A stretch of 64,000 nt of DNA. It comes from Escherichia virus KFS-EC. The position numbers and the translations under genes are program-made. The notes below the pieces were generated by a model, which did no database searches, had not been told where the DNA came from, and saw only the letters and a program-made list of their open reading frames with translations. Shown here piece by piece: positions 7,096 to 59,505 of this stretch. The stretch lies in sequence record MH560358; one strand, written 5' to 3'. Position 1 is the stretch's first letter. Every line of letters starts with the position of its first letter.

Positions 7096-7130
7096 GGGAG
7101 TATCTTACTACTCCCTTAATCCGGTGTCAA
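7096..7130 (-). promoter_or_regulatory. early sigma70-type promoter with stem-loop over -10 (PeSL-like)
   Basis: minus strand TTGACA-17 bp-TAAGAT; GGGAGTA/TACTCCC inverted repeat encloses the -10; upstream of 6309..7067. Confidence 0.55.
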
Positions 7131-7137
7131 CTACTTT

Positions 7138-7293
7138 TTAAATTTCTTCTACAGTAAAGTCTTCAATGTTGTTGTGCTCGGAGAACGTTGCCAGACCAGC
7201 ATTCCATGCATCATCCTCAGAGAAGAATACACCGTAACGTTCATATCCTTTAGCGCCTTCAAATTTAATCATTAATTTGTGAGTATGTTTCAT
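7138..7293 (-). CDS. hypothetical small protein (51 aa)
   Basis: ATG at 7293 preceded by GGAG RBS; longer track ORF (to 7356) runs through the promoter so the internal start is used. Confidence 0.45.
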   Translation of the reverse strand: MKHTHKLMIKFEGAKGYERYGVFFSEDDAWNAGLATFSEHNNIEDFTVEEI

Positions 7294-7324
7294 TTTGATT
7301 CTCCTTCGTTGTCTTGATGGGTTT

Positions 7325-7354
7325 AGTATAGGGGATCGCCGATCCCCTGTCAAC
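7325..7354 (-). promoter_or_regulatory. early sigma70-type promoter with palindromic spacer (PeSL-like)
   Basis: minus strand TTGACA + GGGGATCGGCGATCCCC (17-bp perfect palindrome) + TATACT. Confidence 0.6.
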
Positions 7355-7363
7355 ATCTATTTT

Positions 7364-7576
7364 TTAATTTTTACCCGCTCGTGCATTAATACGCATTTTC
7401 TGCATAGCCATGATCTGGCTTACTGCTTCTTCTTTACGTTCTTGCGTGATAACGTGACCAGATTCCGCAAACTCTCCCGCAACTTCTTCTACGATCTCGC
7501 GAACTTGAGAACGTCCAAAGATGCGGTTTCCTTCGTAGCTCATAAATTCAGTCACTACTTGCTCAATAGATTTCAT
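7364..7576 (-). CDS. hypothetical small protein (70 aa)
   Basis: ATG at 7576 with GGAG RBS; track ORF N-terminus overlaps promoter. Confidence 0.45.
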   Translation of the reverse strand: MKSIEQVVTEFMSYEGNRIFGRSQVREIVEEVAGEFAESGHVITQERKEEAVSQIMAMQKMRINARAGKN

Positions 7577-7595
7577 GTGATTCTCCTTTCGTTTG

Positions 7596-7634
7596 GTATG
7601 GGAGTATAATACTACTCCCATTTCTTTACGTCAA
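7596..7634 (-). promoter_or_regulatory. early sigma70-type promoter with stem-loop over -10 (PeSL-like)
   Basis: minus strand TTGACG-17-TATTAT with GGGAGTA..TACTCCC inverted repeat around -10. Confidence 0.55.
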
Positions 7635-7637
7635 CAA

Positions 7638-7799
7638 CTATTTTAAATTATTTTCGACCTTCACCCATTCCGCGTATTCTTGCGCGGCTACTTTCGGATT
7701 TAGTCCGTCTTCGTACATTGCATCAAGTAATTCTTTGTCGGTGGGCTTATACCCTAGATAAGCCTCCACCTGATTTTTCCAAATTTTATACCAGTTCAT
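7638..7799 (-). CDS. hypothetical small protein (53 aa)
   Basis: internal ATG at 7799 (MNWYKIW...) chosen because the upstream gene ends at 7804. Confidence 0.4.
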   Translation of the reverse strand: MNWYKIWKNQVEAYLGYKPTDKELLDAMYEDGLNPKVAAQEYAEWVKVENNLK

Positions 7800-7803
7800 A
7801 TTA

Positions 7804-8076
7804 TCACCAATCAAGAGCGCGTGTCTCTGCGTCTTCCCATGCTTGATCCATAACAGCCTTGAAAACATATTCTAGAGTATCATCTTTAGAGAATCCGAAG
7901 ACTTTAGACGGAATATCTTCGATTGCTACTCCCGCAACTTCTGCATTACGCGCTTGGCAATAATGCAACTCTAAGTTATCGAGATAGCGACCGCCTAATT
8001 TCTCCATATCATCCCAGCATTTCCAGTAACCTACTTTATTTGCAATTGCTAACACTTTGCTGTTTTCGTTGCTCAT
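7804..8076 (-). CDS. hypothetical protein (90 aa)
   Basis: ATG at 8076 downstream of promoter at 8107..8136. Confidence 0.45.
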   Translation of the reverse strand: MSNENSKVLAIANKVGYWKCWDDMEKLGGRYLDNLELHYCQARNAEVAGVAIEDIPSKVFGFSKDDTLEYVFKAVMDQAWEDAETRALDW

Positions 8077-8106
8077 CTTTGATTCTCCTTTTGTTTGGTA
8101 TGTGTG

Positions 8107-8136
8107 TATTATGCGAGGCTGGATTCGTGAAGTCAA
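8107..8136 (-). promoter_or_regulatory. early sigma70-type promoter
   Basis: minus strand TTGACT-18-ATAATA directly downstream of terminator hairpin. Confidence 0.5.
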
Positions 8137-8139
8137 CAA

Positions 8140-8176
8140 CTTTTTAAAATAAAAAAGCCGACCACAAGGATCGGCT
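8140..8176 (-). terminator. rho-independent terminator (minus strand)
   Basis: AGCCGA tccttgtgg TCGGCT hairpin followed on the minus strand by TTTTTTATTTT; after stop of 8187..8582. Confidence 0.6.
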
Positions 8177-8186
8177 TAATAATCAG

Positions 8187-8582
8187 TTACTTACTAAATT
8201 TCTTTTTGGCTTCGTCTACCGCATGAGATGCCAGTACCGCAGCCGCATGTGCACTTTTATCTGTGTTGCAGAGAACGCCCAGATAAACATCACGCCAAAG
8301 TTTAATCATCTCGTAGATCATATCAATATCATTTTCTTGTTTGTTGGCGATGCTATTCGTCGTTATCTGGTAAGGTAACGGCTTGATCTGTACTGGTTCC
8401 GCCATCGGGCTAATCGGTTTCGGATCAGTCATAATAGGTGCTGTTGTGGGTGGTGTTTTCCATACATCATTATTCCACGGTTTAATCGTTGTGTCGTAAA
8501 GTTTATAAGGATTTTTGTCTGGGTCAACCATCCATGCATGATGAGTACCCAAACCATTTGAAGTGATGCGTCGTTCAGTCAT
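8187..8582 (-). CDS. hypothetical protein, Pro-rich central region
   Basis: 131-aa ORF. Confidence 0.5.
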   Translation of the reverse strand: MTERRITSNGLGTHHAWMVDPDKNPYKLYDTTIKPWNNDVWKTPPTTAPIMTDPKPISPMAEPVQIKPLPYQITTNSIANKQENDIDMIYEMIKLWRDVYLGVLCNTDKSAHAAAVLASHAVDEAKKKFSK

Positions 8583-8784
8583 ACTTTCCCTCCAAAAATT
8601 CTTTCATCAAATAGTCTATCGTTGCTCTGTGTTCTGGTGTGTTTGTTATCTCTGCTAACTTATTCAGAGATTCAATAGTGATCCGGTTGGCTTCTTCCAT
8701 AGTCTCAACGACCATTGGCACAATCTTTTTATTGTTGTACACAAATGCAATATAACCGCCTTCTGGATATTCTTTCATAATCAA
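8575..8784 (-). CDS. hypothetical small protein
   Basis: 69-aa ORF overlapping both neighbours by 4-8 nt (translational coupling). Confidence 0.45.
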   Translation of the reverse strand: MIMKEYPEGGYIAFVYNNKKIVPMVVETMEEANRITIESLNKLAEITNTPEHRATIDYLMKEFLEGKYD

Positions 8785-10142
8785 CCCTTCTTAAGTTCTT
8801 TAAGATCTTTCTTATATTCCTTCATTGCGGTCGTCTTTGTCCAATACTCATATTCACTATGATGTTTATCGGCATCTTTGACCAGTCGATCATACTCTTC
8901 TTGAGTAACGCTATATAATGGCATAGAAACTAGCTTATCGGCGTATGGACGCAGTTTTTCATGTCCATTTATGGATTGCATTACCTCGGCCTTTTTCTTG
9001 CCCTGTAGCTCGATTTCGCCCTTAATTACGCGATCGATAAATTCGGCTTTAGCCATTGCATAATTGTATGCTTCCAGCGTTTCCGCTTGCATCAATTCAA
9101 TGCGTTTATCGACATACCCTAATCGGATTTCGACGAATCGACGGATCAGATCGCTCGCTTTCTCGAATACTTCTACTAAACCACGTTCGTTAACTACTAC
9201 GATATTCTGGGCTACTAACTGCGTTAGTTTAAAATCCTTCATGATTTGCTCATGTCGAGCGGATTCATCTTCGCTTTTGAAATAATCGCGTTTCAGTGTT
9301 ACTTCAAATCTGAATCCGTCCTTAGAGCAACGGTCATTATACGATACAATCAGATCTTTTTCTTCCAGTGCATCCAGTACCGCTACATATTCTTCACGGT
9401 CGAACTTATAAGGAACTTCTGATATTGTCAGTTTAGTCTTGCCGTTTAGTTCATATGTACCCTCAAGAATCACACCATCGCGATCATCTCGCGGGATAAC
9501 TTTACCTGTGAATTTCGGGAATTGAACACTAGGTTCTTTATCCAGTTTTCCGGCAAGTGCTAGCTCTGTGCATTCAATAAGGCTTTCCAGTGAATGCGGT
9601 AAAATGTCAGTTTTATACCCTGTAGCAATACCACTAATACCATTAGCCAATACCATTGGCACAACTGGCAAGTAGAAAGCTGGCGGGATGTGTTCCAGAT
9701 CTTCGTGCTTAGGTGCGCAATTCATATCTTTATAGATTTTAAAGAAGTTTTCATGCACACGAGCAAAGATATAACGTGCCGCACCTGCTTTCTGGACTAA
9801 ACGCGATCCGAAGTTACCTTGACCGTCAAGCAGTGGAGTATTATTGCTCCATGTATTCGCCATGAGTGATCCGGCTTCTACGGCATTAGTTTCCCCGTGG
9901 TGATAACCCAACTCAGCAACACCAGATCCAATATCTGCCATCTTACGGAATTTCTTACGGTCGCCTTTACTCTTTTGCAAAGCACATTCCATAACAAAGC
10001 GTTGCACTGGTTTAAGTCCGTCTACCAATTGAGGAATCCCGCGTTCCTCGGCAGAATAGATCGCATATTCCTTAGCTTCATTATGTACAATGCTTTCAAG
10101 GCTGCGGTAAGTAACTGATTTATTCATCTTCACCTCATACAC
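8781..10142 (-). CDS. 52: DNA topoisomerase II medium subunit (GyrA-like), T4 gp52 homolog
   Basis: 453 aa (T4 gp52 about 442); GyrA-type N-terminal motifs (LKPVQRFV, active-site region); conserved position near rIIB. Confidence 0.88.
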   Translation of the reverse strand: MYEVKMNKSVTYRSLESIVHNEAKEYAIYSAEERGIPQLVDGLKPVQRFVMECALQKSKGDRKKFRKMADIGSGVAELGYHHGETNAVEAGSLMANTWSNNTPLLDGQGNFGSRLVQKAGAARYIFARVHENFFKIYKDMNCAPKHEDLEHIPPAFYLPVVPMVLANGISGIATGYKTDILPHSLESLIECTELALAGKLDKEPSVQFPKFTGKVIPRDDRDGVILEGTYELNGKTKLTISEVPYKFDREEYVAVLDALEEKDLIVSYNDRCSKDGFRFEVTLKRDYFKSEDESARHEQIMKDFKLTQLVAQNIVVVNERGLVEVFEKASDLIRRFVEIRLGYVDKRIELMQAETLEAYNYAMAKAEFIDRVIKGEIELQGKKKAEVMQSINGHEKLRPYADKLVSMPLYSVTQEEYDRLVKDADKHHSEYEYWTKTTAMKEYKKDLKELKKG

Positions 10143-12172: not shown

Positions 12173-12234
12173 AGTATTCATTCCTCTATTAGTTGGGCGA
12201 CTATCGCCGCCCGATTCACATCATTATACCAGAA

Positions 12235-12377: not shown

Positions 12378-14486
12378 TTAAAATTTAACATTCTTAACCA
12401 GTTTCATAAAGTCTTGTGCGCGTTTGTCATTATGCAGAATACGATACCAGTTATCTACAATATCATACAGTAACGGGCTATTCTCTTTAAACTTCGCACA
12501 AACTGCTTTAATTCGTTCGTTTGCTACCGTGAATTTTTCATCACAAATCTTTTTAGTTTCTTCGTCCATAATCCAACGAGTACGAAGGAGTAACTTGGAA
12601 ACCTCTTTATTATAATGACGACCGTACAGTCTGTCAATAAATTCTGGAACACAGCGTTCTAGTTCATCGTCATGAAACAACATAGTGATCACACCCAGAT
12701 ATTCGCCATACCCCAGATGATTGGTCTTAACCTTCTTAGCCAGACCAGCCAGCTTACCGCAAACAAATTCTAGCGCACATTCCAATTGTTCGTCAACGAG
12801 ATATTTTTGTGTCTCGTTTCGAGTAATAATATACTTTGTTACCCCGAAGTAGTCAAGCGCCGTGTGTAATGTATTTTCACTATGGATCGATTTACGACTA
12901 CGGCTTTCGAATGCATCACCTACGCGGAACATGTGCAAGCCTGATAACTCGCGAATCTCTGCCGCTTTCATGTGATGGCTGGTTTTATGCCAATTGTCAC
13001 CAATCTTTTCCATAATATACACGTTAGGCAGCTTGGGAGTAGCTTCACGTTGTGTACGCTCGGTCTTTTCCGGTTTAACTGCTTTAGCACGCAGATCATC
13101 GGCCTCAGACACTTTAATCACGGTCATTTCAGAATCATCATAATACTGTTTGATGTACTCGAAAGTCTCCATATGTTTTTCGTTGTTCTGACGGAACACC
13201 AGTACCTTTTTATTGATTCCGTATTCCTGGACCATGCCGTTAAGAGTCAGTGCACGCAGTTTCGGTTTATCTGTATCATCAATAAGACACGTAATATCTT
13301 CTTTATGCATCCATACAAAATGCGTAATGTTGTATTGACTGCTAACGAAAGCAGGGCGCAATTTACTGATTGTGTGACGAGTACGATACAGAGTATACAC
13401 CTGACCTTCTACGTCATTTGGCGAATCTTTACCAGCATTCACAAACTTATTATAGATTGCTACCGGATCATCCCACTGACCGATCTTACCCATCTTGCTA
13501 ATAATATTGCGTTGCGTCGATGAATACTCGCTCATAAATTGAGCAAGTTTACGCTCTGTTTTAATGTTGGCGATCTTTTCTTTAACCTTTTCCAACATCA
13601 TTTCATTGATTTCTGCAATGCGTTTTTCGATGTTCGCTTTAGTCTCAATTGACAAGTGAACTTCTTCACGCGATGGCATAAGGTCCAGATCACCCAACTC
13701 AAAATTAATGTAAATGGTCTGGTGCTGGCGGTTTACAGCTTCTAACCATGTTCCGCGAACATATTCATACGGGATCGGATACTGGATCTTACCCATGATT
13801 GCATATACTACATAGGAATCGTTATCACGCCCATTACAAACATAATAATTATCAAAGCTAGGGAAATAATTAATTTCGATTGCATTGATATTAGGTTTGT
13901 GTTCCCCAAAATGACGCAGTACAAATTGCGCTTCTCGATGCCATGTCTGAATGTCTTTTTCTTTCACCGGAATAGTGATTTTCAGACCATTGTCTTCATA
14001 GGTCGGTTCGTCGAAAATCTGCACCATTTTCGGCATCGAGTTTTGCACAAATGCCGTAAAGCCATAAGCGCGACCATTGTAATAGTTTACGATTGTAAAG
14101 GTGTCGGTATAGCTATAAGCAGATTTCGCACCTAAACCAAAAGATCCGATATAATCATTAGTCTGGTCTTTTGTTGATTCAAAGTAAACCGTAAACAGTT
14201 GTTCTAATTCTTTCTTAGACGGAATACCAGTACCATAATCACGCACAGAAAAATACGGTTCGATTGCAGTCGGTAAATGAATATCAAACGGACGATCTAA
14301 GGTTCCGGCTTCTTTGTGAGTGTCGGTAGCATTGCACGAATACTCACGGACGCAAGCACGCTCACAATATTGATAAGTGTTCTTAGAAAGCACCATAAAA
14401 GCCTTGCTACTTGCTTTCAGTGAAAAATCAACCGCACCGCTCAAGTCACTGCCAAATACTTCTTCATTATCAATATGCATTTTCAT
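12378..14486 (-). CDS. rIIA: rIIA protein (GHKL-type ATPase domain)
   Basis: 702 aa (T4 725); N-terminal histidine-kinase-like ATPase motifs (DYGTGIP, GSFGLGAKSAY); adjacent to rIIB in T4 order; RBS GAGGA. Confidence 0.92.
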   Translation of the reverse strand: MKMHIDNEEVFGSDLSGAVDFSLKASSKAFMVLSKNTYQYCERACVREYSCNATDTHKEAGTLDRPFDIHLPTAIEPYFSVRDYGTGIPSKKELEQLFTVYFESTKDQTNDYIGSFGLGAKSAYSYTDTFTIVNYYNGRAYGFTAFVQNSMPKMVQIFDEPTYEDNGLKITIPVKEKDIQTWHREAQFVLRHFGEHKPNINAIEINYFPSFDNYYVCNGRDNDSYVVYAIMGKIQYPIPYEYVRGTWLEAVNRQHQTIYINFELGDLDLMPSREEVHLSIETKANIEKRIAEINEMMLEKVKEKIANIKTERKLAQFMSEYSSTQRNIISKMGKIGQWDDPVAIYNKFVNAGKDSPNDVEGQVYTLYRTRHTISKLRPAFVSSQYNITHFVWMHKEDITCLIDDTDKPKLRALTLNGMVQEYGINKKVLVFRQNNEKHMETFEYIKQYYDDSEMTVIKVSEADDLRAKAVKPEKTERTQREATPKLPNVYIMEKIGDNWHKTSHHMKAAEIRELSGLHMFRVGDAFESRSRKSIHSENTLHTALDYFGVTKYIITRNETQKYLVDEQLECALEFVCGKLAGLAKKVKTNHLGYGEYLGVITMLFHDDELERCVPEFIDRLYGRHYNKEVSKLLLRTRWIMDEETKKICDEKFTVANERIKAVCAKFKENSPLLYDIVDNWYRILHNDKRAQDFMKLVKNVKF

Positions 14487-14500: not shown

Positions 14501-14758
14501 TTAATTAAAATCTTCTTTGTCCATCTCTGCGTAGATTACATCCCACGCCCATAAATCAATAAACGCATTATATGTCACGGTGCAATCGTTGTCAATCACT
14601 TCTTTCGCATATTTCTTGATGTTTTCGTAGGAAACTTGCGGATCAATTTTGTGTTTACGAAGGTGTGCATATTCATACCTCAAACATTTCATAAACAGGT
14701 CCATCGATTTCTTTTCTCGATGACACTTGGCGATCAGAAAATCAAAACTTCGACTCAT
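14501..14758 (-). CDS. hypothetical protein (rIIA.1 position)
   Basis: 85-aa ORF directly upstream of rIIA. Confidence 0.5.
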   Translation of the reverse strand: MSRSFDFLIAKCHREKKSMDLFMKCLRYEYAHLRKHKIDPQVSYENIKKYAKEVIDNDCTVTYNAFIDLWAWDVIYAEMDKEDFN

Positions 14759-14768: not shown

Positions 14769-14963
14769 TTATACATTTTCAATCACCCATTGCAGATGGG
14801 CTTCTGCGTCAACCAGTTCAGCGCGGCTTTTCTCTAAACACTTGCTGTATTCTTTACGTTCCCAATCAGCAATTTCGTTTTTCAGGACTTCTTCATAGTA
14901 AGCAATTACGCCTTTCAGGTCTGAAACTTTACGGCTTGCCAGTTCGATGTAATGGTTACGCAT
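14769..14963 (-). CDS. hypothetical small protein
   Basis: 64-aa ORF. Confidence 0.4.
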   Translation of the reverse strand: MRNHYIELASRKVSDLKGVIAYYEEVLKNEIADWERKEYSKCLEKSRAELVDAEAHLQWVIENV

Positions 14964-15159: not shown

Positions 15160-15174
15160 CCTTTTGTTTTCGAT

Positions 15175-51378: not shown

Positions 51379-51402
51379 AAATTCACCCTCCAAAGAAGGT
51401 AT

Positions 51403-52505: not shown

Positions 52506-52936
52506 TATCCCTTCCTCAAATAAGTTCTCTCGATCTCTACCAGTTCGAAAAATTCTTGCCAATCACACGGAAAATTGCAGTTTCCGAAATGATCCTCTTT
52601 GTAAAGTTCTTTACCGGATGGCAGCTTAATATCTGTTACGCTGTAGTATCCGCAACAATCGCAATCACCATCTGTATATTCTGTTTTAGTCGGAATATCC
52701 ATCATTGCCAGATACAAAGGTACATCGTCTTGCTCAAAGTTCATGTAACCTTCATGGTCGAATGAAACAAAGTTATCATCGCCACCGAAAGGGATATAAT
52801 GGTCATAATCGGTTACAGGTTGACCGTGCAATTCCCATTCTACAATTTTAACATTACCACTAAACTTTATACCCATAATTTCAACAAGAAAATGAGTATC
52901 GTCAATGTAAATCTTACTAGGGGTTGGATAAACCAT
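52505..52936 (-). CDS. hypothetical Cys-rich protein
   Basis: 143-aa ORF translationally coupled to dam. Confidence 0.5.
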   Translation of the reverse strand: MVYPTPSKIYIDDTHFLVEIMGIKFSGNVKIVEWELHGQPVTDYDHYIPFGGDDNFVSFDHEGYMNFEQDDVPLYLAMMDIPTKTEYTDGDCDCCGYYSVTDIKLPSGKELYKEDHFGNCNFPCDWQEFFELVEIERTYLRKG

Positions 52937-52946
52937 TATATAATCC

Positions 52947-53243
52947 TCATATCTCAGAGAATAGAATCTCTGTTAGCTTCACTGACTGCTCTCTGAATGT
53001 TAGCGTATACTCGAAAGGAAAGTCAACACCCAACTTCAAAAGAGAATAGCCTACATCCTCTTTATGCTTATCGGTTAGGGCAATCCTAACCAATTCCCGT
53101 TGAATCTCTTTAGGCGGTGAATGGATAGTAACACGGGTATCATGCAATGTCCAGTCACCATTACGAATCAAGATTAACGGTTTATCGTCATTGAAGATCA
53201 CCGACCCCTTTCCGGTCGGTGAGTGTTTTATACTAATCATCAA
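52947..53243 (-). CDS. hypothetical protein
   Basis: 98-aa ORF. Confidence 0.45.
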   Translation of the reverse strand: MMISIKHSPTGKGSVIFNDDKPLILIRNGDWTLHDTRVTIHSPPKEIQRELVRIALTDKHKEDVGYSLLKLGVDFPFEYTLTFREQSVKLTEILFSEI

Positions 53244-53454
53244 ATTCTAAGAAATATTCTGGAACGATATACCCGTTAAAGTCATTGCACTTATAAAAAC
53301 GTGGTGCATTCAATGCTGAATGAGCATTAGTAAAGAGTTTACCCTCTAGAAACAGAATGTAATTAATAGGTCTAATACCGACAGAATCAGGGTCTAAACC
53401 TTTTTCTTTCAGTTCAGCCAGCGTTAAAACTCGGCCAGATCGTAACTTAGCCAT
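53233..53454 (-). CDS. hypothetical small protein
   Basis: 73-aa ORF. Confidence 0.4.
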   Translation of the reverse strand: MAKLRSGRVLTLAELKEKGLDPDSVGIRPINYILFLEGKLFTNAHSALNAPRFYKCNDFNGYIVPEYFLEFDD

Positions 53455-53740
53455 GATTTACCCCTAATTCATCAAGATTATGTCGCAGCATTTCAGAGTA
53501 TTTTTCTACTTCCTTGATCTTAGTGTGGATCTCCACGATCTCATCTTCACTATCAGAAAGTTTAATGGCAATTGCTAGCATGCTTTTACCAGCTTTCATA
53601 GTCTCTTTCCGTTCAACCAATAGATCCGCGTGTTTCAGTAGCAGTTCTTCACGTCGAACATAAGCAACAGTTAGAGCTTCATCAGCGATTTCTAAAGCAT
53701 TTTCAGCGACACCAACAACCATTTTACGAGTAGACAGCAT
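53447..53740 (-). CDS. hypothetical protein
   Basis: 97-aa ORF. Confidence 0.45.
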   Translation of the reverse strand: MLSTRKMVVGVAENALEIADEALTVAYVRREELLLKHADLLVERKETMKAGKSMLAIAIKLSDSEDEIVEIHTKIKEVEKYSEMLRHNLDELGVNHG

Positions 53741-53754
53741 AAATTCACCTCACA

Positions 53755-54063
53755 TTATTTCACGTTAACGCCGTCATCAATCCAGCCGACGCTATTTGGT
53801 TTAACAGTTTTACCATAGGATGCATACTTAATCAAGCATGGTTTAACATCATTATCAAATCTTCCTAAACGTACTCCCAAATCAGGAATATCCATGTATG
53901 CGGCTTTATATCCCCATGTGCCATATTCAGAATCAATCTCAACCGGACGGCCTTTAAAAGCATACACTACACCGTGACGGTCAACGATAACATAACAATA
54001 ACCAGCCGGAAGATACACAGTTTCGCCGTAAACTTTAACTGGAGTAGCAGAAGAGATAAACAT
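53755..54063 (-). CDS. hypothetical protein
   Basis: 102-aa ORF. Confidence 0.45.
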   Translation of the reverse strand: MFISSATPVKVYGETVYLPAGYCYVIVDRHGVVYAFKGRPVEIDSEYGTWGYKAAYMDIPDLGVRLGRFDNDVKPCLIKYASYGKTVKPNSVGWIDDGVNVK

Positions 54064-54132
54064 AATATAATCCTCACATCGTTCATTTGATGCGGTTATT
54101 ATATGATAACCGCATTTTCATGTCAACAGTTT

Positions 54133-54441
54133 TTAAAAATCTTCTTCCGGTTTATATCGACCGTCATCGACTGGTTTTGGACTGAATCCTTTATGCGTGC
54201 GCGGCTTCGCTTCCGGTTTACCAGCAATCATCAAACCAAAACATTTCAGCCCCTTATAACACATAACAATATCAACCACGGTCCACGTTATAGGCCATAC
54301 GATTGCAGCAATACAAAATGCTCCTGTATCGACCTCTTTGGTGTCCTTGTCGAATCTGGCGTACAAGCAGAATACTAGATACGAGATCATTGCACCAGTA
54401 GTCCAGATATAAAGCACATTAACAATATCTTGTGTTGTCAC
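54133..54441 (-). CDS. hypothetical membrane protein
   Basis: GTG 54441 with AAGGAGG RBS (5-nt spacing); two TM segments; track ORF (to 54555) would overlap the upstream gene by 100 nt. Confidence 0.4.
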   Translation of the reverse strand: MTTQDIVNVLYIWTTGAMISYLVFCLYARFDKDTKEVDTGAFCIAAIVWPITWTVVDIVMCYKGLKCFGLMIAGKPEAKPRTHKGFSPKPVDDGRYKPEEDF

Positions 54442-54451
54442 ATTATCCTCC

Positions 54452-54730
54452 TTACATGTCTTGCAGTGCATAAAAGCATTTTTCTTCATAGTCATAGAAA
54501 ATGTCAAAGTATGCTTTTTCCACATACTCGCCATTAATCCAAGCGGCAGTAACAATCAGAGTGGTCCAGTTAGATCCGCTCTCAACGGTAAAGGTTTTAA
54601 TACCCAGCTTCGCTGCCAAGTCGAACGCAAACCGGACGCAACCACGGCAGGAAGTGATATTGGAAGTTTTGATTTTAAAGCCACCGCGAGTTTTAGAAAT
54701 TTCTACTTTAGCGAAAGACAGGTTGATCAT
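54452..54730 (-). CDS. hypothetical protein
   Basis: ATG 54730 with GGAG RBS downstream of promoter 54772..54801. Confidence 0.45.
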   Translation of the reverse strand: MINLSFAKVEISKTRGGFKIKTSNITSCRGCVRFAFDLAAKLGIKTFTVESGSNWTTLIVTAAWINGEYVEKAYFDIFYDYEEKCFYALQDM

Positions 54731-54771
54731 TTTGATTCTCCTTAAGAAAGTGTGTTTCGTTTTGATGTGTG

Positions 54772-54801
54772 TAGTATAGGGGATCACCGATCCCCTGTCA
54801 A
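54772..54801 (-). promoter_or_regulatory. early sigma70-type promoter with palindromic spacer (PeSL-like)
   Basis: minus strand TTGACA + GGGGATCGGTGATCCCC + TATACT. Confidence 0.6.
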
Positions 54802-54810
54802 CAACTTTTT

Positions 54811-55140
54811 TTATGATTTTAGTGAATTAACCACTACATCAAAATGATGTACAGAGCACACCTTACGAAACACATATTCATCATGTTTCGGAATCGCCCC
54901 CAACCGCTTTATTTCGCTCGCCGACACGATAAACCGTTTATCAGGTGCATTTACCTTATATGCTTCAACAACGCACGGAAAACGCGTTTTAGAGAGTTCG
55001 GGATAGTTTTCTGACTCCATCAGGACAATGAATACCCTATTACATTGATTGTAGAATCCGGTTTTTGATTTCATCAAGTTTTCTTCTCTGTGAAATTCGT
55101 GCAATCTTCCTTTCATGATTTCGTTGGTTCTCGTCTTCAC
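54811..55140 (-). CDS. hypothetical protein (start uncertain)
   Basis: 109-aa track ORF; overlaps upstream ORF by 100 nt, so a later in-frame start (55074 or 55020) is likely. Confidence 0.4.
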   Translation of the reverse strand: MKTRTNEIMKGRLHEFHREENLMKSKTGFYNQCNRVFIVLMESENYPELSKTRFPCVVEAYKVNAPDKRFIVSASEIKRLGAIPKHDEYVFRKVCSVHHFDVVVNSLKS

Positions 55141-55381
55141 AGTTTACCCACTCAACAAGGTCTTTACCTAACTCGAAAGCCCATTCTCGGTCCTGCTTTA
55201 CGTTTTGTAGGTATGGACTTTCCGACACTCGACGAAGTGATCTTGTCGTAACAAGAATGATCCCAGGAATGTTCGGATGTTCCTTTCCATATACAATAGG
55301 ACGCGAGTCACTATCAATACCCTGTAAGAAGGTGTATCCCGAATCACTTAGGATCATATACATTTTCATTTCATCCATCAC
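55040..55381 (-). CDS. hypothetical protein
   Basis: 113-aa ORF. Confidence 0.45.
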   Translation of the reverse strand: MMDEMKMYMILSDSGYTFLQGIDSDSRPIVYGKEHPNIPGIILVTTRSLRRVSESPYLQNVKQDREWAFELGKDLVEWVNCEDENQRNHERKIARISQRRKLDEIKNRILQSM

Positions 55382-55638
55382 AGTTTCCTCAACCAGTTAT
55401 TAAAGCGAGTAAACCATGATGCTTTTCGTGCTTCTTCTTCGGCTTTGCACGCACGCAAACCACTGAAACACCATTCATAATCATCACTGAAACATGATTC
55501 AACAGGAACACCCGCATTTCGTAGTTCTCTGGTCGTTATCATGAATCCTTGACATAATGGGCGACCTTCAACAATGATAGGAAGTTTAACTTTTTCCATG
55601 AAAGTATACCCAGCACGGTCAATAATTTCAATCTTCAT
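55378..55638 (-). CDS. hypothetical small protein, MKIEIID family member 1
   Basis: 86 aa; MKIEIIDRAGYTFMEKVKLPIIVEGR...; paralog of 55657..55854 and 57973..58194. Confidence 0.5.
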   Translation of the reverse strand: MKIEIIDRAGYTFMEKVKLPIIVEGRPLCQGFMITTRELRNAGVPVESCFSDDYEWCFSGLRACKAEEEARKASWFTRFNNWLRKL

Positions 55639-55656
55639 AATATAATCCTCAATTAG

Positions 55657-55854
55657 TTATACCGCCCAGGCTTCATTTGCACGAAAACACCATTCATACT
55701 CAGGAAAATAACCTTTAATTGGTACGCCAGCTTTTTGTAGTTCCTGCGTTTCTACAAGATAATCAAGCCCATATCGACGACCTTCCACGATGATAGGAAG
55801 TTTAACGCCATTCATGAAAGAAAATCCACCATCATCAATAATTTCAATTTTCAT
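55657..55854 (-). CDS. hypothetical small protein, MKIEIID family member 2
   Basis: 65 aa; MKIEIIDDGGFSFMNGVKLPIIVEGR... Confidence 0.5.
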   Translation of the reverse strand: MKIEIIDDGGFSFMNGVKLPIIVEGRRYGLDYLVETQELQKAGVPIKGYFPEYEWCFRANEAWAV

Positions 55855-56099
55855 TTGACATTATCTCCATAGATCTTTCCATCAATATCAATTTCACCAG
55901 CGCGAACATCTAGGATAAGATGTGGTAGGTGTATGCAGTTTTCCCACCCTACGCGCTTCATTTCTTCTACGGTAACGTAAGCCCATCCGTTCGCTGTAAT
56001 AAAGTCTACTTCAACCTTGAGAGGAAAGCAAGACTTTTCTATGTCTTCGAATCCGATAATGTGTTTTGTCGTTGAATATGGAATATATCCGGTGATCAT
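55851..56099 (-). CDS. hypothetical small protein
   Basis: 82-aa ORF. Confidence 0.4.
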   Translation of the reverse strand: MITGYIPYSTTKHIIGFEDIEKSCFPLKVEVDFITANGWAYVTVEEMKRVGWENCIHLPHLILDVRAGEIDIDGKIYGDNVK

Positions 56100-56557
56100 T
56101 TTGTGATCTCCTTATACTCAACACACCATAAGCGGGTAGCCCATGATAAACGCTCATAACGCTGGCAGAAATCGGACCATAGATATTGTGCACCGTTCGG
56201 CATAGTTGAAATATGCGTTTTCTCACCTACTTTCACGAAAGAAGTATTCGATTTTGTGATCTCGACCGGAGTATATCCGAAAGCTGGTTCCAAGTCAACA
56301 TCTGAACTAAATGCTAATTTAACAGAATTTGTTTTTCTGACCGCTGTCCTGTTTCCTTCCGGGTATAACACAGCAGGTTTAGCGCCTAAGCGGATAAACT
56401 CAGTATTTTTAATGAACAGAATATCATGATAACCGTCATATTCCGACACTTCCATAGTAACAGGAAAATCGATATGTGCTAAACCTGGTAGATCTCGCAT
56501 ATCATGAAATGTAGCCATAAGCTTTTTCATTCTATATTCCTCACTCTTCTGTTTCAT
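56096..56557 (-). CDS. hypothetical protein
   Basis: 153-aa ORF. Confidence 0.5.
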   Translation of the reverse strand: MKQKSEEYRMKKLMATFHDMRDLPGLAHIDFPVTMEVSEYDGYHDILFIKNTEFIRLGAKPAVLYPEGNRTAVRKTNSVKLAFSSDVDLEPAFGYTPVEITKSNTSFVKVGEKTHISTMPNGAQYLWSDFCQRYERLSWATRLWCVEYKEITK

Positions 56558-56738
56558 TTCTTTTATATGGTACTATAACAGGATTAATACAGCAAGCACC
56601 AATTACGTTATGAGCACCACAATTTAAACATTTATAGTCATGGAACTTATTAAGGAATCGACCAAACTCATAGCCGACTAACGCCGCATGTACTTGAGTC
56701 TCGATCTCATCCATATCAGCCAATGTTTTAACCTTCAT
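56541..56738 (-). CDS. hypothetical small Cys-containing protein
   Basis: ATG 56738 with GAGGA RBS; track ORF start (56777) overlaps upstream gene. Confidence 0.4.
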   Translation of the reverse strand: MKVKTLADMDEIETQVHAALVGYEFGRFLNKFHDYKCLNCGAHNVIGACCINPVIVPYKRNETEE

Positions 56739-56748
56739 AATATAATCC

Positions 56749-57039
56749 TCAAATTGTAGTTTTGCGAAGATGGTCATTACATGCTTTTAATGCATCGGTC
56801 GCGGTGTCATAGCGAGTATTATCATAGCACCAATAACCATCTGTCAACTGATAAATTAATCCATCCTTTTTAGCTTCGATGAAAGACAATTCTTTGAAAG
56901 TTTCTACTTTCTTTGCTGATACTCCACGGTCACGGCGCTTATAGAGTTTAGCCAAAATGCGTTCAGCTTGTTCCTCTTTATCACCAGACAGATCCCAGAT
57001 GATGTTTCGGATATGCTTGATTAATTGTTCAGTGGTCAT
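56749..57039 (-). CDS. hypothetical protein
   Basis: 96-aa ORF downstream of promoter 57069..57096. Confidence 0.45.
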   Translation of the reverse strand: MTTEQLIKHIRNIIWDLSGDKEEQAERILAKLYKRRDRGVSAKKVETFKELSFIEAKKDGLIYQLTDGYWCYDNTRYDTATDALKACNDHLRKTTI

Positions 57040-57068
57040 CTTTGATTCTCCTTAGTTGGTATGCGTGC

Positions 57069-57096
57069 ATTATAGCATTGTGATTATCTTTGTCAA
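57069..57096 (-). promoter_or_regulatory. early sigma70-type promoter
   Basis: minus strand TTGACA-16-TATAAT, followed by leader ...AACTAAGGAGAATC and ATG 57039. Confidence 0.55.
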
Positions 57097-57097
57097 C

Positions 57098-57133
57098 ACC
57101 CAAAAACAAAAAAGGCTACCCCGAAGGATAGCC
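57098..57133 (-). terminator. rho-independent terminator after the gp38-like gene
   Basis: minus strand GGCUAUCC-uucg-GGGUAGCC hairpin followed by UUUUUUGUUUUUG. Confidence 0.55.
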
Positions 57134-57140
57134 CATAAAA

Positions 57141-57917
57141 TTACACGCGAGCACCGTAGATCGTGCCTACTTTATCCCAGCGTGGAGCATTACCAGTAAC
57201 GGCTTTACCAGCAGCACCACCGTTATATTCTGTACCGTTACCCTGAGTATTACATCTTCCTCCAGCAGCACCAACGTTACCGCCCGCACCGCCTGTATAT
57301 GCACTAAGAGACCCCTTACCAACAGATCCTTTACCCGGAGCGGAAATGGAGCCAGCGGTTGCACCAGAACCCATATTAGAGGAAGACCCGGCAGCACCGA
57401 ATGGGCAACCACCGCCGCCACCAAATACTAGTCGACCCCTGTTACCGCCGCCACCGCCGCCACCGCCGCCAGCGATAGCACCGTTATTTGTAATTCGTAG
57501 ACGTGTACCGATAGCGTTATTGATTGCGTTTCCACCAGCAGCGCCAGCAGCGTTACTACCACCATTACCCCCACGTCCGTAGACAGTCACACCGGAGTTA
57601 ATGATCAATGTTACATATTCGTTTGTTAACGAGCTAGGGAAGTCAAGACAAGGAACGCCAGTAGATTGGGAAACAATATTACCTGTGATAGTAATTACTA
57701 CCGGAGTAGATCCTTGTGCTTTCATCCAGTTAATAAGAGTGTCTTTATTGTAAGAGTTACTAGCACCAATGCTATAATGAATCTCTTTAGAGCGTCCGAC
57801 CATTGCCGACATATACGCCGGACGACCTAAGCGTACAGCTTGCATTGCGGCGCTCATCCACCGTTGACCAGTCTCGGACACAGCAGATGATCCTACCCAT
57901 CCAGAAGATATTGCCAT
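57141..57917 (-). CDS. glycine-rich gp38-type tail-fiber adhesin-like protein
   Basis: 258 aa; N-terminus GWVGSSAVSETGQRWMS...GRSKEI resembles the gp37-binding region of T2-type gp38 as recalled; then YGRGGNGGSN..GAAGGN, NNGAIAGGGGGGGGG and further Gly-rich blocks separated by short variable segments; GAGGA RBS. Confidence 0.6.
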   Translation of the reverse strand: MAISSGWVGSSAVSETGQRWMSAAMQAVRLGRPAYMSAMVGRSKEIHYSIGASNSYNKDTLINWMKAQGSTPVVITITGNIVSQSTGVPCLDFPSSLTNEYVTLIINSGVTVYGRGGNGGSNAAGAAGGNAINNAIGTRLRITNNGAIAGGGGGGGGGNRGRLVFGGGGGCPFGAAGSSSNMGSGATAGSISAPGKGSVGKGSLSAYTGGAGGNVGAAGGRCNTQGNGTEYNGGAAGKAVTGNAPRWDKVGTIYGARV

Positions 57918-57972
57918 AAAATTTCCTCATAAGAAAAGCCCCAATTAAGGGGGCATTGATTGATAATATTAC

Positions 57973-58194
57973 TTAGATGACCTCTGCTTCACCATCCAGG
58001 AAGAAAGACCATGTTTTGTTAGGATAGCGAAGCGCCCATGATTCAGCAGTTTTAACACCCGCTTCGAACAATTGACGGCTGGTTACTTTAGCCATACCAT
58101 CTTCGATGGCAACGTTTTCAATAATCATCGGGTACTTAGCGCCACGCATGAAACCGAAACCAGCGGAAGATTTGATAATTTTAACAGTTGCCAT
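57973..58194 (-). CDS. hypothetical small protein, MKIEIID family member 3
   Basis: 73 aa; MATVKIIKSSAGFGFMRGAKYPMIIEN...; followed by hairpin GCCCC..GGGGC + U-run (57933..57960). Confidence 0.45.
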   Translation of the reverse strand: MATVKIIKSSAGFGFMRGAKYPMIIENVAIEDGMAKVTSRQLFEAGVKTAESWALRYPNKTWSFFLDGEAEVI

Positions 58195-58234
58195 TTTTGA
58201 TTCTCCTAGAAAGTGTATCTCGTTTCGATGGGTG

Positions 58235-58264
58235 TATTATGCAATAACACCGGATCGCTGTCAA
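58235..58264 (-). promoter_or_regulatory. early sigma70-type promoter
   Basis: minus strand TTGACA-18-ATAATA with conserved leader and GGAGAATC RBS. Confidence 0.5.
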
Positions 58265-58281
58265 CACTTTCTAAGAAATTT

Positions 58282-58566
58282 TTAAACTAATCGAATATAG
58301 CCCAGAATTTCAGCACTTTTAGCCAGATCTAAAACTTCCCATTCAAGGTCTCCATAGTCATAATTTGCAACCATCAACTGACCATTTTTCATGCAGCAAT
58401 CATGAGAGAAAATTTGCCCCGCATAAACTACGATAGTGATAAACTTTCCTGATTCTGGCGGTGTGGAAGACAAAGCGACCATATGACCATTCAGCTTAGT
58501 CACCAGTGATGGAACAATAAAATTCGGGCTTACCTTAATACCGTTAAATTCGTTTGTGTCTTTCAT
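58282..58566 (-). CDS. hypothetical protein
   Basis: 94-aa ORF. Confidence 0.45.
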   Translation of the reverse strand: MKDTNEFNGIKVSPNFIVPSLVTKLNGHMVALSSTPPESGKFITIVVYAGQIFSHDCCMKNGQLMVANYDYGDLEWEVLDLAKSAEILGYIRLV

Positions 58567-58913
58567 GCCAGACCTCGCAAAATACTAATAGCATAATCAT
58601 GCTGGTTATTCATAATATCAATTGCATTGTGATAACGAGCTAAACCATCAAGGATAAATTCTTGTTTATCCTGTTTCAGTTTGGTATCACGCGCAGCCAT
58701 AAGAGCATCAAGAACAGGTCCAAAGTGATTATCTAATTCATCTTCGGTTGCAATGTTTCCTATTGCCTCGTCGATCCGTGATTCTAATGCTTGCTTTTCG
58801 TTGATCACTTGCTGGGTATATTCCAACACATCAAGAATATCGCGGGTAACGTCGCCATGATAAGGTATTCCCGCATGAAGATGATCAATTAGTCGTTGAA
58901 TGTCAATGTTCAT
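58563..58913 (-). CDS. hypothetical protein
   Basis: 116-aa ORF. Confidence 0.45.
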   Translation of the reverse strand: MNIDIQRLIDHLHAGIPYHGDVTRDILDVLEYTQQVINEKQALESRIDEAIGNIATEDELDNHFGPVLDALMAARDTKLKQDKQEFILDGLARYHNAIDIMNNQHDYAISILRGLA

Positions 58914-59248
58914 TTGTAACCCTCCTCTGAAAGCACATCCCAGATCGTTGAGTCAAGGTGCATTAAATTCCACATAATAGAGTCATAACTACCGAAGCCA
59001 GAAGTAAAAATTACATCACACTGGCGATATGTCTTATGAAAATCGGTGGCTGTCTCTGCATCAATAGGCATATCGTCACCTGAAAGCACCAGACATTTAA
59101 GAATCATAACTCTGTTAGCCGTTGGCGCTTGCTTAGTCTTTTCAGCATATTTTTCGATGATCCGTTTTGCCTTTTCTTCTTTGATACGTCCAGACCAAAT
59201 CCGGTTTCTATATTGATTCATAATAATTTCAATCACATCATTTTGCAT
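58910..59248 (-). CDS. hypothetical protein
   Basis: 112-aa ORF. Confidence 0.45.
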   Translation of the reverse strand: MQNDVIEIIMNQYRNRIWSGRIKEEKAKRIIEKYAEKTKQAPTANRVMILKCLVLSGDDMPIDAETATDFHKTYRQCDVIFTSGFGSYDSIMWNLMHLDSTIWDVLSEEGYK

Positions 59249-59447
59249 TCTTCACGGTCTCCATAATTGTTTTGTAAGCCAGTTTAAGATGGTCACCGAA
59301 AAACTTTGCGGTGTTACCCTTCGGATCGCGGAGCATGGTTTCTACGATCTCATCGGCAGTAACAATTTCTCCTTTCTTTGCTGCATGTTCTACCATATAC
59401 TTCAAAGTTTCTTCGGAAGCAAGTGCTGCGGCTACTGGATTAATCAT
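59238..59447 (-). CDS. hypothetical small protein
   Basis: 69-aa ORF downstream of promoter. Confidence 0.4.
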   Translation of the reverse strand: MINPVAAALASEETLKYMVEHAAKKGEIVTADEIVETMLRDPKGNTAKFFGDHLKLAYKTIMETVKNAK

Positions 59448-59475
59448 TTTGATTCTCCTTTGTTGTCGATGTGTG

Positions 59476-59505
59476 CATTATGCTATACCCTATTCCGGTT
59501 GTCAA
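59476..59505 (-). promoter_or_regulatory. early sigma70-type promoter
   Basis: minus strand TTGACA-18-ATAATG, followed by GGAGAATC leader. Confidence 0.5.

Follow-up and report, generated by a model that had tools for sequence, protein, structure and literature searches.

What are the promoter and hairpin elements that recur along one strand of the genome of Escherichia virus KFS-EC (MH560358), and are they involved in the exchange of the genes that they accompany? The window analyzed here, a 64,000-nt stretch of this record, belongs to a Krischvirus, an RB49-like T4-type coliphage approximately 97–98% identical to RB49, JSE, Phi1, and JEP8. A preliminary description had likened the elements to promoter-early stem-loop (PeSL) cassettes; they are real, and we put the probability at roughly 90% that they are indeed PeSLs, the early-promoter cassettes of RB49-type phages first defined in the RB49 and phi1 genomes (Arbiol et al., 2010; PMC2839356). 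They are of identical kind, with an anatomy that follows the published definition point by point. Since the phage is a relative of RB49 and PeSLs were published in 2010, the observation is a correct rediscovery rather than something new: elements already known from RB49-like phages are confirmed here, and their interpretation is supported.

Each unit is intergenic, spans approximately 55–110 bp, and lies on the early-transcribed strand. It comprises the stop codon of the upstream gene in an A/T-rich stretch (74% A+T upstream of the -35, vs. 60% in the whole window), followed by a near-consensus sigma70 -35 (TTGACA), a 16–18 nt spacer, and a TATAAT-like -10. After the -10 come a C-rich start region (aCaCaCATC) and a short leader, and either of two stereotyped ribosome-binding regions then leads to the ATG. 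RB49 and phi1 carry 51–52 such units per genome, with stem-loops in five positions (Arbiol et al., 2010). Curation of the window left 24 sigma70-type promoters in intergenic minus-strand sequence, along with two extended -10 variants, so that the earlier figure of at least 15 was conservative; one of the 24 (63304) lies beyond the range of 7096–59505 to which that figure referred. The strict pattern TTGACN(17-19)TAWWMT matched 29 times in the window, always on the minus strand (1.89 ± 1.38 matches expected), and a looser scan gave 57 minus-strand vs. 6 plus-strand matches. The curated promoters precede a start codon by 25–62 nt (21 of them by 25–44 nt), all 10 within 45984–63304 coincide with promoters already marked in the GenBank entry for phage GEC-3S, and the RB49 early-promoter consensus agrees with 5'-end mapping (PMC1524935).

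A GC-rich stem-loop accompanies 21 of the 24 promoters, in one of five positions, which are the five subclasses of PeSL set out by Arbiol et al. (2010); all elements below are on the minus strand, with the -35 given before the -10. Arms of the form GGGAGTA(N4-8)TACTCCC enclose the -10 at exactly the four sites first described, 7096, 7600, 49633, and 50867 (0 expected), where they belong to the PeSLs at 7068–7137 (TTGACA 7130–7125, TAAGAT 7107–7102, stem-loop GGGAGTA/TACTCCC 7096–7115, start region GAGGAATATATTATG, ATG 7067), 7577–7637 (TTGACG 7634–7629, TATTAT 7611–7606, stem-loop 7600–7619, AAGGAGAATC, ATG 7576), 49608–49666 (TTGACA 49666–49661, whose TGA is the upstream stop codon, TATAAT 49644–49639, stem-loop 49633–49654, ATG 49607), and 50842–50904, a chimera (TTGACA 50901–50896, TAAGAT 50878–50873, stem-loop 50867–50886). 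Other stems also surround the -10, at 15151–15216 (TTGACA 15209–15204, CATAAT 15186–15181, GGGGATAT/ATGTCCCC 15175–15196, ATG 15150), 15517–15581 (TTGACA 15578–15573, TATAAT 15556–15551, a 13-bp stem-loop at 15538–15569 and then a T-run, likely ATG 15516), 54064–54132 (TTGACA 54126–54121, TATAAT 54103–54098, GCGGTTAT/ATAACCGC 54090–54115, ATG 54063), and, as a weak stem GGTGT/ACACC, 58195–58281 (TTGACA 58264–58259, CATAAT 58241–58236, leader end TAGGAGAATCAAAAATG, ATG 58194).

Within the spacer, the palindrome GGGGATCGNNGATCCCC occurs at 7331–7347 and 54779–54795 (0.05 chance matches expected), and a third copy, GGGGATCGCGAGATCCCC at 45962–45979, escaped the fixed-pattern search because its loop is one base longer; all three had been reported, and every coordinate cited at the outset proved correct. 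The corresponding PeSLs lie at 7294–7363 (TTGACA 7353–7348, GGGGATCGGCGATCCCC, TATACT 7330–7325, leader end AAGGAGAATCAAAATG, ATG 7293), 54731–54810 (TTGACA 54801–54796, GGGGATCGGTGATCCCC, TATACT 54778–54773, leader end TAAGGAGAATCAAAATG, ATG 54730), and 45914–45988 (TTGACG 45984–45979, TATACT 45961–45956, leader end CAGGAGAATCAAATATG, ATG 45913), and a further spacer stem-loop, CGGGGAGAAATCCCCG, at 39035–39091 (TTGACG 39088–39083, TATACT 39065–39060, ATG 39034). Upstream of the -35, terminators are found at 8077–8186 (canonical hairpin 8155–8177 with a T-run, TTGACT 8136–8131, CATAAT 8113–8108, AAGGAGAATCAAAGATG, ATG 8076), 47107–47205 (AGCCGATCCGAAAGGGTCGGCT with T-run 47179–47200, TTGACA 47162–47157, TATAAT 47140–47135, ATG 47106), 57040–57140 (GGGCTATCCTTCGGGGTAGCCT with T-run 57113–57134, TTGACA 57096–57091, TATAAT 57074–57069, AAGGAGAATCAAAGATG, ATG 57039), and 59448–59549 (AAAAAGCCATCCGAAAGGGTGGCTTTTT 59518–59545, TTGACA 59505–59500, CATAAT 59482–59477, AAGGAGAATCAAAATG, ATG 59447).

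Two PeSLs flank gene 43: the one upstream (32211–32292) has a stem-loop, TAGGGG..CCCCTA 32246–32280, that spans the -35 (TTGACA 32271–32266, TATAAT 32248–32243, ATG 32210), and the one directly downstream of the gene (29471–29542) has a GGCGGGTG..CACCCGCC-like stem-loop after the -10, at about 29488–29514 (TTGACA 29542–29537, TATAAT 29520–29515, ATG 29470). The hairpin likewise follows the -10 at 17406–17504 (TTGACA 17495–17490, TATGAT 17473–17468, a stem-loop with six G-U pairs at about 17436–17468, ATG 17405 of a gene 39 homolog), 21796–21864 (TTGACA 21857–21852, TATTAT 21834–21829, terminator-like GCCTCC..GGAGGC plus T6 at 21805–21828, ATG 21795), and 34210–34297 (TTGACT 34297–34292 within the upstream gene, TATAAT 34274–34269, GGGGAGTGTAAATACTCCCC 34243–34262, ATG 34209). 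No convincing hairpin was seen at the remaining three promoters, 21231–21291 (TTGACA 21288–21283, AATAAT 21265–21260, AAGGAGAATCAATTATG, ATG 21230), 27358–27412 (TTGACA 27412–27407, TAAAAT 27389–27384, GAGAGGATTATATTATG, ATG 27357), and 63242–63326, which follows the regB homolog and has only an AU-rich fold (TTGACT 63304–63299, TATTAT 63281–63276, ATG 63241). The variants comprise 12173–12234, upstream of an rIIB homolog (extended -10 TGgTATAAT, weak -35 TTGTCG, stem-loop GGGCGGCGATAGTCGCCC downstream), and 40115–40204, with a terminator hairpin AAGGGAGAC..GTTTCCCTT and T-run, extended -10 TGaTATAGT, no -35, and a leader beginning GAGAGCATCGAAAAC ahead of ATG 40114 of a gene 47 homolog.

The preliminary description also linked the elements to modular gene shuffling, and our comparisons support that link. 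Alignment with 14 loci from 13 related genomes reveals chimeras of one PeSL with another at the cassette gain or loss junctions 50857–50901, 7145|7342, 7642–7656, and 8073–8109, and the window itself probably carries products of such crossovers. At 50901, where an 865-bp two-gene cassette is absent from the window, the upstream half of the PeSL is that found before ORF060 in RB49 and the downstream half is that found before frd.2, with the crossover inside the 22-nt GGGAGTAGTAAGATACTCCCAT common to both. An ORF cassette at 7145|7342 is missing from MIZ4, phiS, and pEJ01; relatives carry insertions at 7642–7656 and 8073–8109, whose crossovers fall in the A/T-rich region and the leader; and FL15 is without the ORF at 14975|15168, with its junction in a leader.

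These junctions bear on the possibility that the elements are nothing more than strong early promoters and terminators of an ordinary kind in short intergenic gaps, devoid of any special recombination role, with indels concentrated there by selection against gene disruption. PeSLs make up approximately 4% of the sequence and are touched by 10 of 22 indel events (binomial p about 3e-6), but under the fairer null that indels survive only at gene junctions, approximately 20% of which have a PeSL, only a marginal excess remains (p about 0.06). Other routes account for about half of the indels: six homing-endonuclease events and, at junctions lacking a promoter, a crossover between the 5' ends of tandem paralogs (45232–45269) and a repeated 27-nt stop-SD-start linker (56526–56552). 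The claim that the elements bracket most accessory ORFs is too broad: some cassette borders do fall at PeSLs, but a PeSL directly precedes only about one-fifth of minus-strand genes (4 of the 15 in 4053–8778), the rest lying in polycistronic runs. We nevertheless regard a purely ordinary role as unlikely, for three reasons. The junctions are true chimeras with the crossover inside 15–45 nt common to two PeSLs; exact identity over 12 nt or more (24 nt at most) is seen in 40 of the 276 PeSL pairs; and the mini-circles obtained by inverse PCR in the published work were joined inside PeSLs, the crossover lying between the -10 and the SD/ATG, whereas genes without PeSLs gave none (Arbiol et al., 2010).

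The stem-loops raise a second issue, namely whether the spacer and -10 palindromes act as RNA hairpins or as double-stranded DNA sites for a dimeric phage protein, either a repressor of early promoters or a starter of site-directed recombination. Arbiol et al. (2010) speculated on a GGGG...CCCC-binding protein, and some arms do recur (GGGGATC three times, GGGAGTA four times), which can be ascribed to their spread by PeSL-PeSL recombination. A T-run follows only 7 of the 21 hairpins, so that for hairpins of the spacer and -10 types, action as intrinsic terminators is backed by a single published construct, the stem-loop of PeSL211/210, which cut lacZ expression comparably to the rrnB T1 terminator (Arbiol et al., 2010). 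Against a DNA site, the arms vary widely between elements (GGGGATC, GGGAGTA, CGGGGA, GCGGTTAT, AAGGGAGATTC), and the place of the hairpin is not fixed with respect to the promoter, a pattern consistent with selection acting on pairing and not on sequence. The 24 elements have a mean folding z-score of -2.2 (below -2 in 12), and in 17 of them folding is better for the sense strand than for its complement owing to G-U pairs, which occur in the sense orientation only and point to pairing at the RNA level. Among orthologs, loops vary freely whereas stems are conserved, with 1.5% of stem sites substituted vs. 3.3% in the surrounding element, half the rate (Fisher p = 6e-5). The 13 pairing-preserving stem changes are all one-sided, most of them to or from a G-U pair, and the 12 pair-breaking changes fall at terminal pairs or stem from loop-length change; no double compensatory stem changes were seen among these close relatives. 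A protein-binding DNA site is thus improbable.

The leader said to follow most promoters does exist, with nine exact copies of AAGGAGAATC, all on the minus strand, but leaders of this type follow only about 10 of the 24; a second stereotyped start region, GAGGAWTATATTATG, is found at 5–6 other promoters and at 12 promoter-less gene starts. In the simplest reading, the leader is a shared promoter start region joined to a stereotyped ribosome-binding site. Its block GGAGAATCAAA matches the RegB/S1 endoribonuclease target consensus of T4-type phages, GGAGRAYARAA (Durand et al., 2006; PMC1702504), at 10 of 11 positions and, like those targets, overlaps the SD of promoter-proximal early genes; position 8 is C rather than the preferred A, and these are putative sites known from sequence, in a window that encodes a regB homolog (63327–63749). 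That the leader is instead a distinct regulatory RNA, riboswitch-like or sRNA-binding and specific to this promoter family, is very improbable despite the recurrence of GGAGAATCAAA (8 occurrences vs. 1.35 expected for the looser GGAGRAYNRAA) and of the block aCaCaCATC(g/a)A(a/g)AC after the -10, as it spans only about 20–35 nt with no conserved fold, its 3' block is an SD plus spacer that fits the RegB/S1 consensus, and the second start region is common to promoter-less genes; an Rfam search gave no match.

With the elements taken as PeSLs, a mechanism can be proposed. Judging from the consensus match, host RNA polymerase with sigma70 would transcribe from them early in infection; promoter activity has been shown with a lacZ fusion, in that of two PeSLs cloned, one wild-type clone (PeSL206/205) was measured at about 13,000 Miller units, and the published PeSLs tested (ORFs 192/193, 205/206, and 210/211) all come from outside this window (Arbiol et al., 2010). 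The GC-rich hairpin, whether upstream of the -35, over it, in the spacer, around the -10, or just downstream, would fold in RNA arriving from upstream promoters and terminate, attenuate, or 3'-stabilize that RNA, so that each cassette may be insulated from its neighbors. The approximately 24 near-identical copies in the same orientation (about 50 per genome) account for the patches of 12–24 nt exact identity, which the T4-type recombination machinery would use, and crossovers between PeSLs would then delete, insert, or swap the flanked ORFs while every gene stays under a promoter.

Among known systems, the PeSLs of RB49 and phi1 (Arbiol, Comeau, Kutateladze, Adamia, and Krisch, 2010, Genome Biol Evol 2:140) match those described here in genus and in nucleotide sequence (97–98% identity), in the A/T-rich stop region, sigma70 -35/-10, GGGG...CCCC-type stem-loop in five positions, SD, and ATG, and in being intergenic, flanking gene 43, and being associated with indels between close relatives. 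There is no difference in kind, although the cassette content of the window is its own: a single chimeric PeSL stands at 50901 where RB49, Phi1, and JSE have two flanking two genes, and the cassette absent from MIZ4, phiS, and pEJ01 is an extra ORF at 7138–7293. PeSL-like elements of T4/PST and KVP40/nt-1 (Comeau, Arbiol, and Krisch, 2014, Genome Biol Evol 6:1611; PMC4122927) and elements of the T-even internal-protein (IP) locus (Repoila et al., 1994, via PMC2839356) are likewise composite promoter-terminator motifs that border variable genes in hyperplastic regions and are proposed as recombination linkers. The IP-locus elements are analogs rather than homologs, with T4-type early promoters that are not sigma70-like and weaker, more A/T-rich stems (PMC2839356). 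Morons (Hendrix et al., 2000) and the gene cassettes of integrons also carry accessory genes as self-contained units, which enter a phage or host genome with a promoter of their own (and, in morons, a terminator), but the flanks of morons are not believed to mediate mobility, and integrons depend on attC sites and an integrase. In RB49/phi1, no recombinase of the integrase type has been found (PMC2839356), so that PeSL exchange seems to depend on general homologous recombination between short stretches of shared sequence.

The early promoter elements of the window are promoter-early stem-loop cassettes (PeSLs; Arbiol et al., 2010; PMC2839356). The preliminary description had named the right family: in their sigma70 promoter, A+T content, stem-loop, SD/ATG region, location and indels, the elements have the features of PeSLs. 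It had proposed at least 15 minus-strand early promoters, with coordinates that are all correct, and a strict genome-wide pattern, TTGACN(17-19)TAWWMT, finds 29 matches in the window, every one of them on the minus strand; dinucleotide shuffles would give 1.9. Once every intergenic gap had been read, 24 intergenic promoters were counted (each named here by the first base of its -35 on the minus strand), the intergenic assignments being based on gene calling, reading of the gaps and the annotation of relatives. These 24 elements agree with the sigma70 consensus (-35 TTGACA, 16-18 nt spacer, -10 TATAAT) at 10-12 of 12 positions, and two variants with an extended -10 and without a good -35 lie at 12173-12234 and 40115-40204. 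TTGACA is directly preceded by the consensus aaaaaagtTG, and the roughly 20 nt before the -35 (-20 to -2) are 74% A+T, compared with 60% for the window; a C-rich block, aCaCaCATC, comes after the -10. In 21 of the 24, 25-44 nt with stereotyped SD regions separate the -10 from the start codon, and stop codons lie 0-25 nt away in most elements. For each of the ten window elements from 45984 to 63304, a promoter at the corresponding position is annotated in GenBank for phage GEC-3S.

Perfect or near-perfect sigma70 consensus promoters also occur within coding sequence, at 12609-12637, 14567-14595 and 40549-40578 (minus strand), 85-260 nt upstream of the next gene. Intragenic matches to the strict pattern number 13 on the minus strand and 0 on the plus strand, a bias that suggests real internal early promoters without stem-loops. 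At 15516-15556 (minus strand), ATG 15552, annotated as the start in relatives (111-aa product), falls inside the -10 hexamer of PeSL 15578, and an in-frame ATG at 15516 with a GAGGA SD sits downstream of the promoter and hairpin; to judge from this arrangement, 15516 is more likely to be the true start. Annotation pipelines for Krischvirus could flag PeSLs and mend such start codons (15552 vs 15516).

About 50 Krischvirus genomes (RB49, JSE, Phi1, GEC-3S, JEP8 and others) match at 95-99% identity when three parts of the window are compared by megablast with the phage collection, and the matches span almost the whole of each part. The RB49 gene 52 region is the counterpart of 7000-9500, and 40001-64000 corresponds to RB49 26275-52229 (gene 47 to regB). 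From about 4050 on, the minus strand, which in T4-type phages is the early-transcribed one, carries almost every gene. PeSLs cluster at 7068-8186 and 45914-59549, and PeSLs 32271 and 29542 flank the gene 43 homolog (892 aa).

Segments of about 130 nt around each promoter were folded, with z-scores from mononucleotide shuffles; the mean z-score was -2.2, and 12 of 24 fell below -2. Local hairpin extraction gave GC-rich hairpins (-10 to -23 kcal/mol) in 21 of the 24 minus-strand elements, and these occupy five positions. Four lie upstream of the -35 and, having a T-run, are canonical terminators (8136, 47162, 57096 and 59505); one spans the -35 (32271); four are within the spacer (7353, 39088, 45984 and 54801); eight enclose the -10 (7130, 7634, 15209, 15578, 49666, 50901 and 54126, with 58264 weakly so); and four are downstream of the -10 (17495, 21857, 29542 and 34297). 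No convincing hairpin was found by this extraction at the other three of the 24 promoters (21288, 27412 and 63304). The arms GGGAGTA...TACTCCC are exact at all four positions where they had been described (7096, 7600, 49633 and 50867), with none expected. The shared spacer palindrome holds for two identical copies of GGGGATCGNNGATCCCC, at 7331-7347 and 54779-54795 (0.05 expected), but the third, at 45962, reads GGGGATCGCGAGATCCCC and has a loop one base longer.

A T-run or U-tract directly follows the hairpin in only 7 of 21 elements (8136, 47162, 57096, 59505, 15578, 21857 and 34297), and spacer-type and most -10-type hairpins have tails of UAUACU or AUCAAG instead. For these two types the terminator label would be an extension from one published construct, and their role may rather be to attenuate transcription or to make 3' ends more stable. 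At 21796-21864 (minus strand), a perfect intrinsic terminator (GCCTCC...GGAGGC plus T6) comes directly after a consensus-like promoter; it includes the only SD-like sequence, and 3 nt separate its end from the ATG of the ModB-like gene. The arrangement looks like a built-in attenuator. A further intergenic hairpin, CCCCAGATT...AATCTGGGG, lies at 60464-60531 (minus strand) upstream of the rI homolog, and its loop contains TATAAATA, a T4-type late promoter motif. The whole window gave no RNA family in Rfam at gathering thresholds.

Whether the stems matter as RNA or as DNA can be judged from how they vary. Hairpin arms are highly variable among elements and are not in a fixed register with the promoter, which fits selection on pairing, not on a specific binding sequence. 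Among orthologs from 14 related loci, 1.5% of paired positions are substituted, compared with 3.3% elsewhere in the element (Fisher p = 6e-5). Of the stem changes, 13 retain a standard pair, each of them one-sided and most to or from G-U; 12 break a pair, and these affect outermost or loop-closing A-T pairs or are by-products of changes in loop length. Double compensatory changes were not seen in these alignments, which span a short evolutionary distance. In 17 of the 24 elements, G-U pairs make the fold of the sense strand more stable than that of the antisense strand (sign test p = 0.06). Arm variability, stem conservation and sense-strand folding together favour hairpins that would act at the RNA level, on read-through transcripts. 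That the palindromes are operators or other DNA-binding sites was rejected as the main explanation, since neither the sequence nor the position of the stems is constant, loops differ freely and G-T pairing is confined to the sense strand. A Dam methylation switch was considered, given the phage's own Dam and a pair of GATC sites in every spacer palindrome, but it gains no support: the number of GATC sites in the window is close to expectation (361 against 348.5; ratio 1.04). GGCC and AGCT are scarcer over the whole window than a Markov model predicts (observed/expected 0.58 and 0.64), unlike GATC, and this scarcity may reflect avoidance of restriction sites.

The exchange of cassettes was followed at 14 loci in 13 related genomes, whose blastn alignments were chained to the window and their junctions read. 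Chimeric junctions, with indels or crossovers in PeSLs, were found at 50857-50901, 7145/7342, 7642-7656, 8073-8109, 14975/15168 and 57063/57973. In 8 of 8 relatives, a two-gene cassette (865 bp) lies between two PeSLs where the window has the single PeSL 50901; its upstream half matches the relatives' upstream PeSL and its downstream half their downstream PeSL, and the crossover falls within the common GGGAGTAGTAAGATACTCCCAT. MIZ4, phiS and pEJ01 are without the window ORF 7138-7293 and its PeSL, and the joint falls in the A/T-rich region; several relatives are about 500 bp longer at 7642-7656; an extra 273 bp at 8073-8109 in pEJ01 and SSG23 has its crossover in the leader; FL15 is without ORF 14956-15150, and here the joint lies in a leader; and G2494 is without the g38 cassette (57063/57973) and has a different, spacer-type PeSL in its place. 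Exact identity of at least 12 nt, and up to 24 nt, is found in 40 of the 276 PeSL pairs within the window.

Accessory-gene boundaries in relatives coincide with the elements in several cases, and 10 of 22 definable indel events involve a PeSL. With PeSLs making up about 4% of the sequence compared, the binomial p is about 3e-6; if indels are viable at gene junctions only, about 20% of which have a PeSL, the excess is marginal (p of about 0.06). Enrichment was set aside as evidence for that reason, and it is the chimeric junction sequences that point to PeSL-mediated exchange. The idea that PeSLs bracket most accessory ORFs holds for the small ORFs at 7138-8076, which are individually flanked and gave no Pfam match, but accessory ORFs mostly stand in multi-gene runs between PeSLs, and a PeSL stands immediately before only about 20% of minus-strand genes (4 of 15 in 4053-8778, for example).

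The remaining events are six homing-endonuclease insertions, a crossover between tandem paralogs, a 27-nt linker repeat and replacements by divergent alleles. The ORF at 22394-22957 (minus strand), with HNH_3 and AP2 domains of a homing endonuclease, is also present in phiS and is missing from 5 of the 6 genomes compared there, relatives having 11 bp instead. At 44780-45269 (minus strand; 5940-6580 in the related-phage locus L001), tandem paralogous ORFs encode products that begin M(E/K)(W/L)E(A/I/V)GKTY, and relatives have one more copy (495 bp) between 38-nt repeats made of paralog 5' ends; the event at 45232-45269 is an unequal crossover between tandem paralogs with no PeSL involved. A 27-nt stop-SD-start linker, ACAGAAGAGTGAGGAATATAGAATGAA, at 56526-56552 (minus strand; locus L006, 17880-18220) borders an extra 219-nt ORF in G2494; a cassette was gained or lost here at a stereotyped junction that has no promoter. 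Upstream of PeSL 59505, a non-coding stretch of 328 nt (59448-59775, minus strand; compared with locus L003, 21040-21470, and locus L005, 21179-23326) has as its counterpart the small ORF 084.1 in Phi1 and a 715-aa ORF with a weak Ig-like match in Brandy and SSG23. The g38 adhesin gene (57141-57917, minus strand), missing in G2494, is a terminator-flanked cassette in a variable region; MIZ4, Skers, phiS and FL15 instead have an adhesin gene directly after gene 37, where the window has an unrelated 107-aa ORF (2605-2928, plus strand).

What had been called a conserved leader consists of two parts: the block after the -10 (aCaCaCATC...), which is part of the promoter and transcription start region, and a stereotyped ribosome-binding region at the 3' end. 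The AAGGAGAATC leader does recur, but behind about 10 of 24 promoters and not most. Start regions of two types recur. The first, GGAGAATCAAA, has 8 copies in the window, or 10 with two near variants, 9 of them promoter-proximal; the second, GAGGAWTATATTATG, has 18 copies, 6 behind PeSL promoters and 12 at promoter-less gene starts (9/10 vs 6/18, Fisher p = 0.006). In phages that encode RegB, the RegB/S1 target is a single-stranded 11-mer, usually over the SD of an early gene, with the consensus GGAGRAYARAA (Durand et al., 2006; PMC1702504). GGAGAATCAAA fits this consensus at 10 of 11 positions (position 8 is C), and the window encodes a regB homolog; we infer that the GGAGAATCAAA start region could tie promoter-proximal early genes to RegB inactivation.

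Taken jointly, these features may make the PeSL a complete temporal programme, with promoter-less start regions as extra linkers, a tentative reading to which we give roughly one chance in three. The sigma70 promoter would be on at infection, the hairpin would insulate the cassette and, in the GGAGAATCAAA subclass, a RegB/S1 site within the ribosome-binding site of the first cistron would turn expression off as RegB accumulates. GAGGAWTATATTATG and the linker at 56526-56552, both promoter-less, would serve as additional recombination linkers. If true, any ORF shuffled behind such a cassette would inherit early-on/early-off expression, and cassette shuffling would draw on all stereotyped intergenic sequence, beyond PeSLs.

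PeSLs are among the few concrete candidates for the "linker" sequences required by the modular theory of phage evolution. They were defined in RB49 and phi1, where 51 and 52 were counted, with a stable, often polyG...polyC stem-loop whose five positions define five subclasses, and they lie mostly in hyperplastic regions upstream of ORFans and flank gene 43 (PMC2839356). The published definition also has the SD and ATG of the following gene at the 3' end, and it ties PeSLs to insertions, deletions and replacements among near relatives that cross over within the element (PMC2839356). Two were cloned in lacZ fusions, one stem-loop cut lacZ expression comparably to the rrnB T1 terminator, and mini-circles were recovered with joints between the -10 and the SD/ATG; these promoter, terminator and mini-circle results concern other PeSLs of RB49 and phi1, not those of the window (PMC2839356). 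A passage of Nolan et al. (2006; PMC1524935) states that the predicted RB49 early-promoter consensus agrees with the 5'-end mapping of Desplats et al. (2002). A literature search on Krischvirus transcriptomics found nothing relevant. As the five positions, the gene 43 flanking and functional tests are already described (PMC2839356), the elements of the window, known since 2010 from the same phage genus, are a rediscovery. The additions are modest: PeSL-PeSL chimeras replicated with later-sequenced genomes, promoter-less stereotyped start regions that double as indel junctions, and one leader type that fits the RegB/S1 consensus and is a candidate target. With post-2010 genomes, gain and loss of cassettes in RB49-like phages often crosses over inside PeSLs, which supports the published model and adds no new kind of element. 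Set beside the PeSLs of RB49 and phi1, those of the window have their hairpins at the same five positions and flank gene 43 in the same way (PMC2839356).
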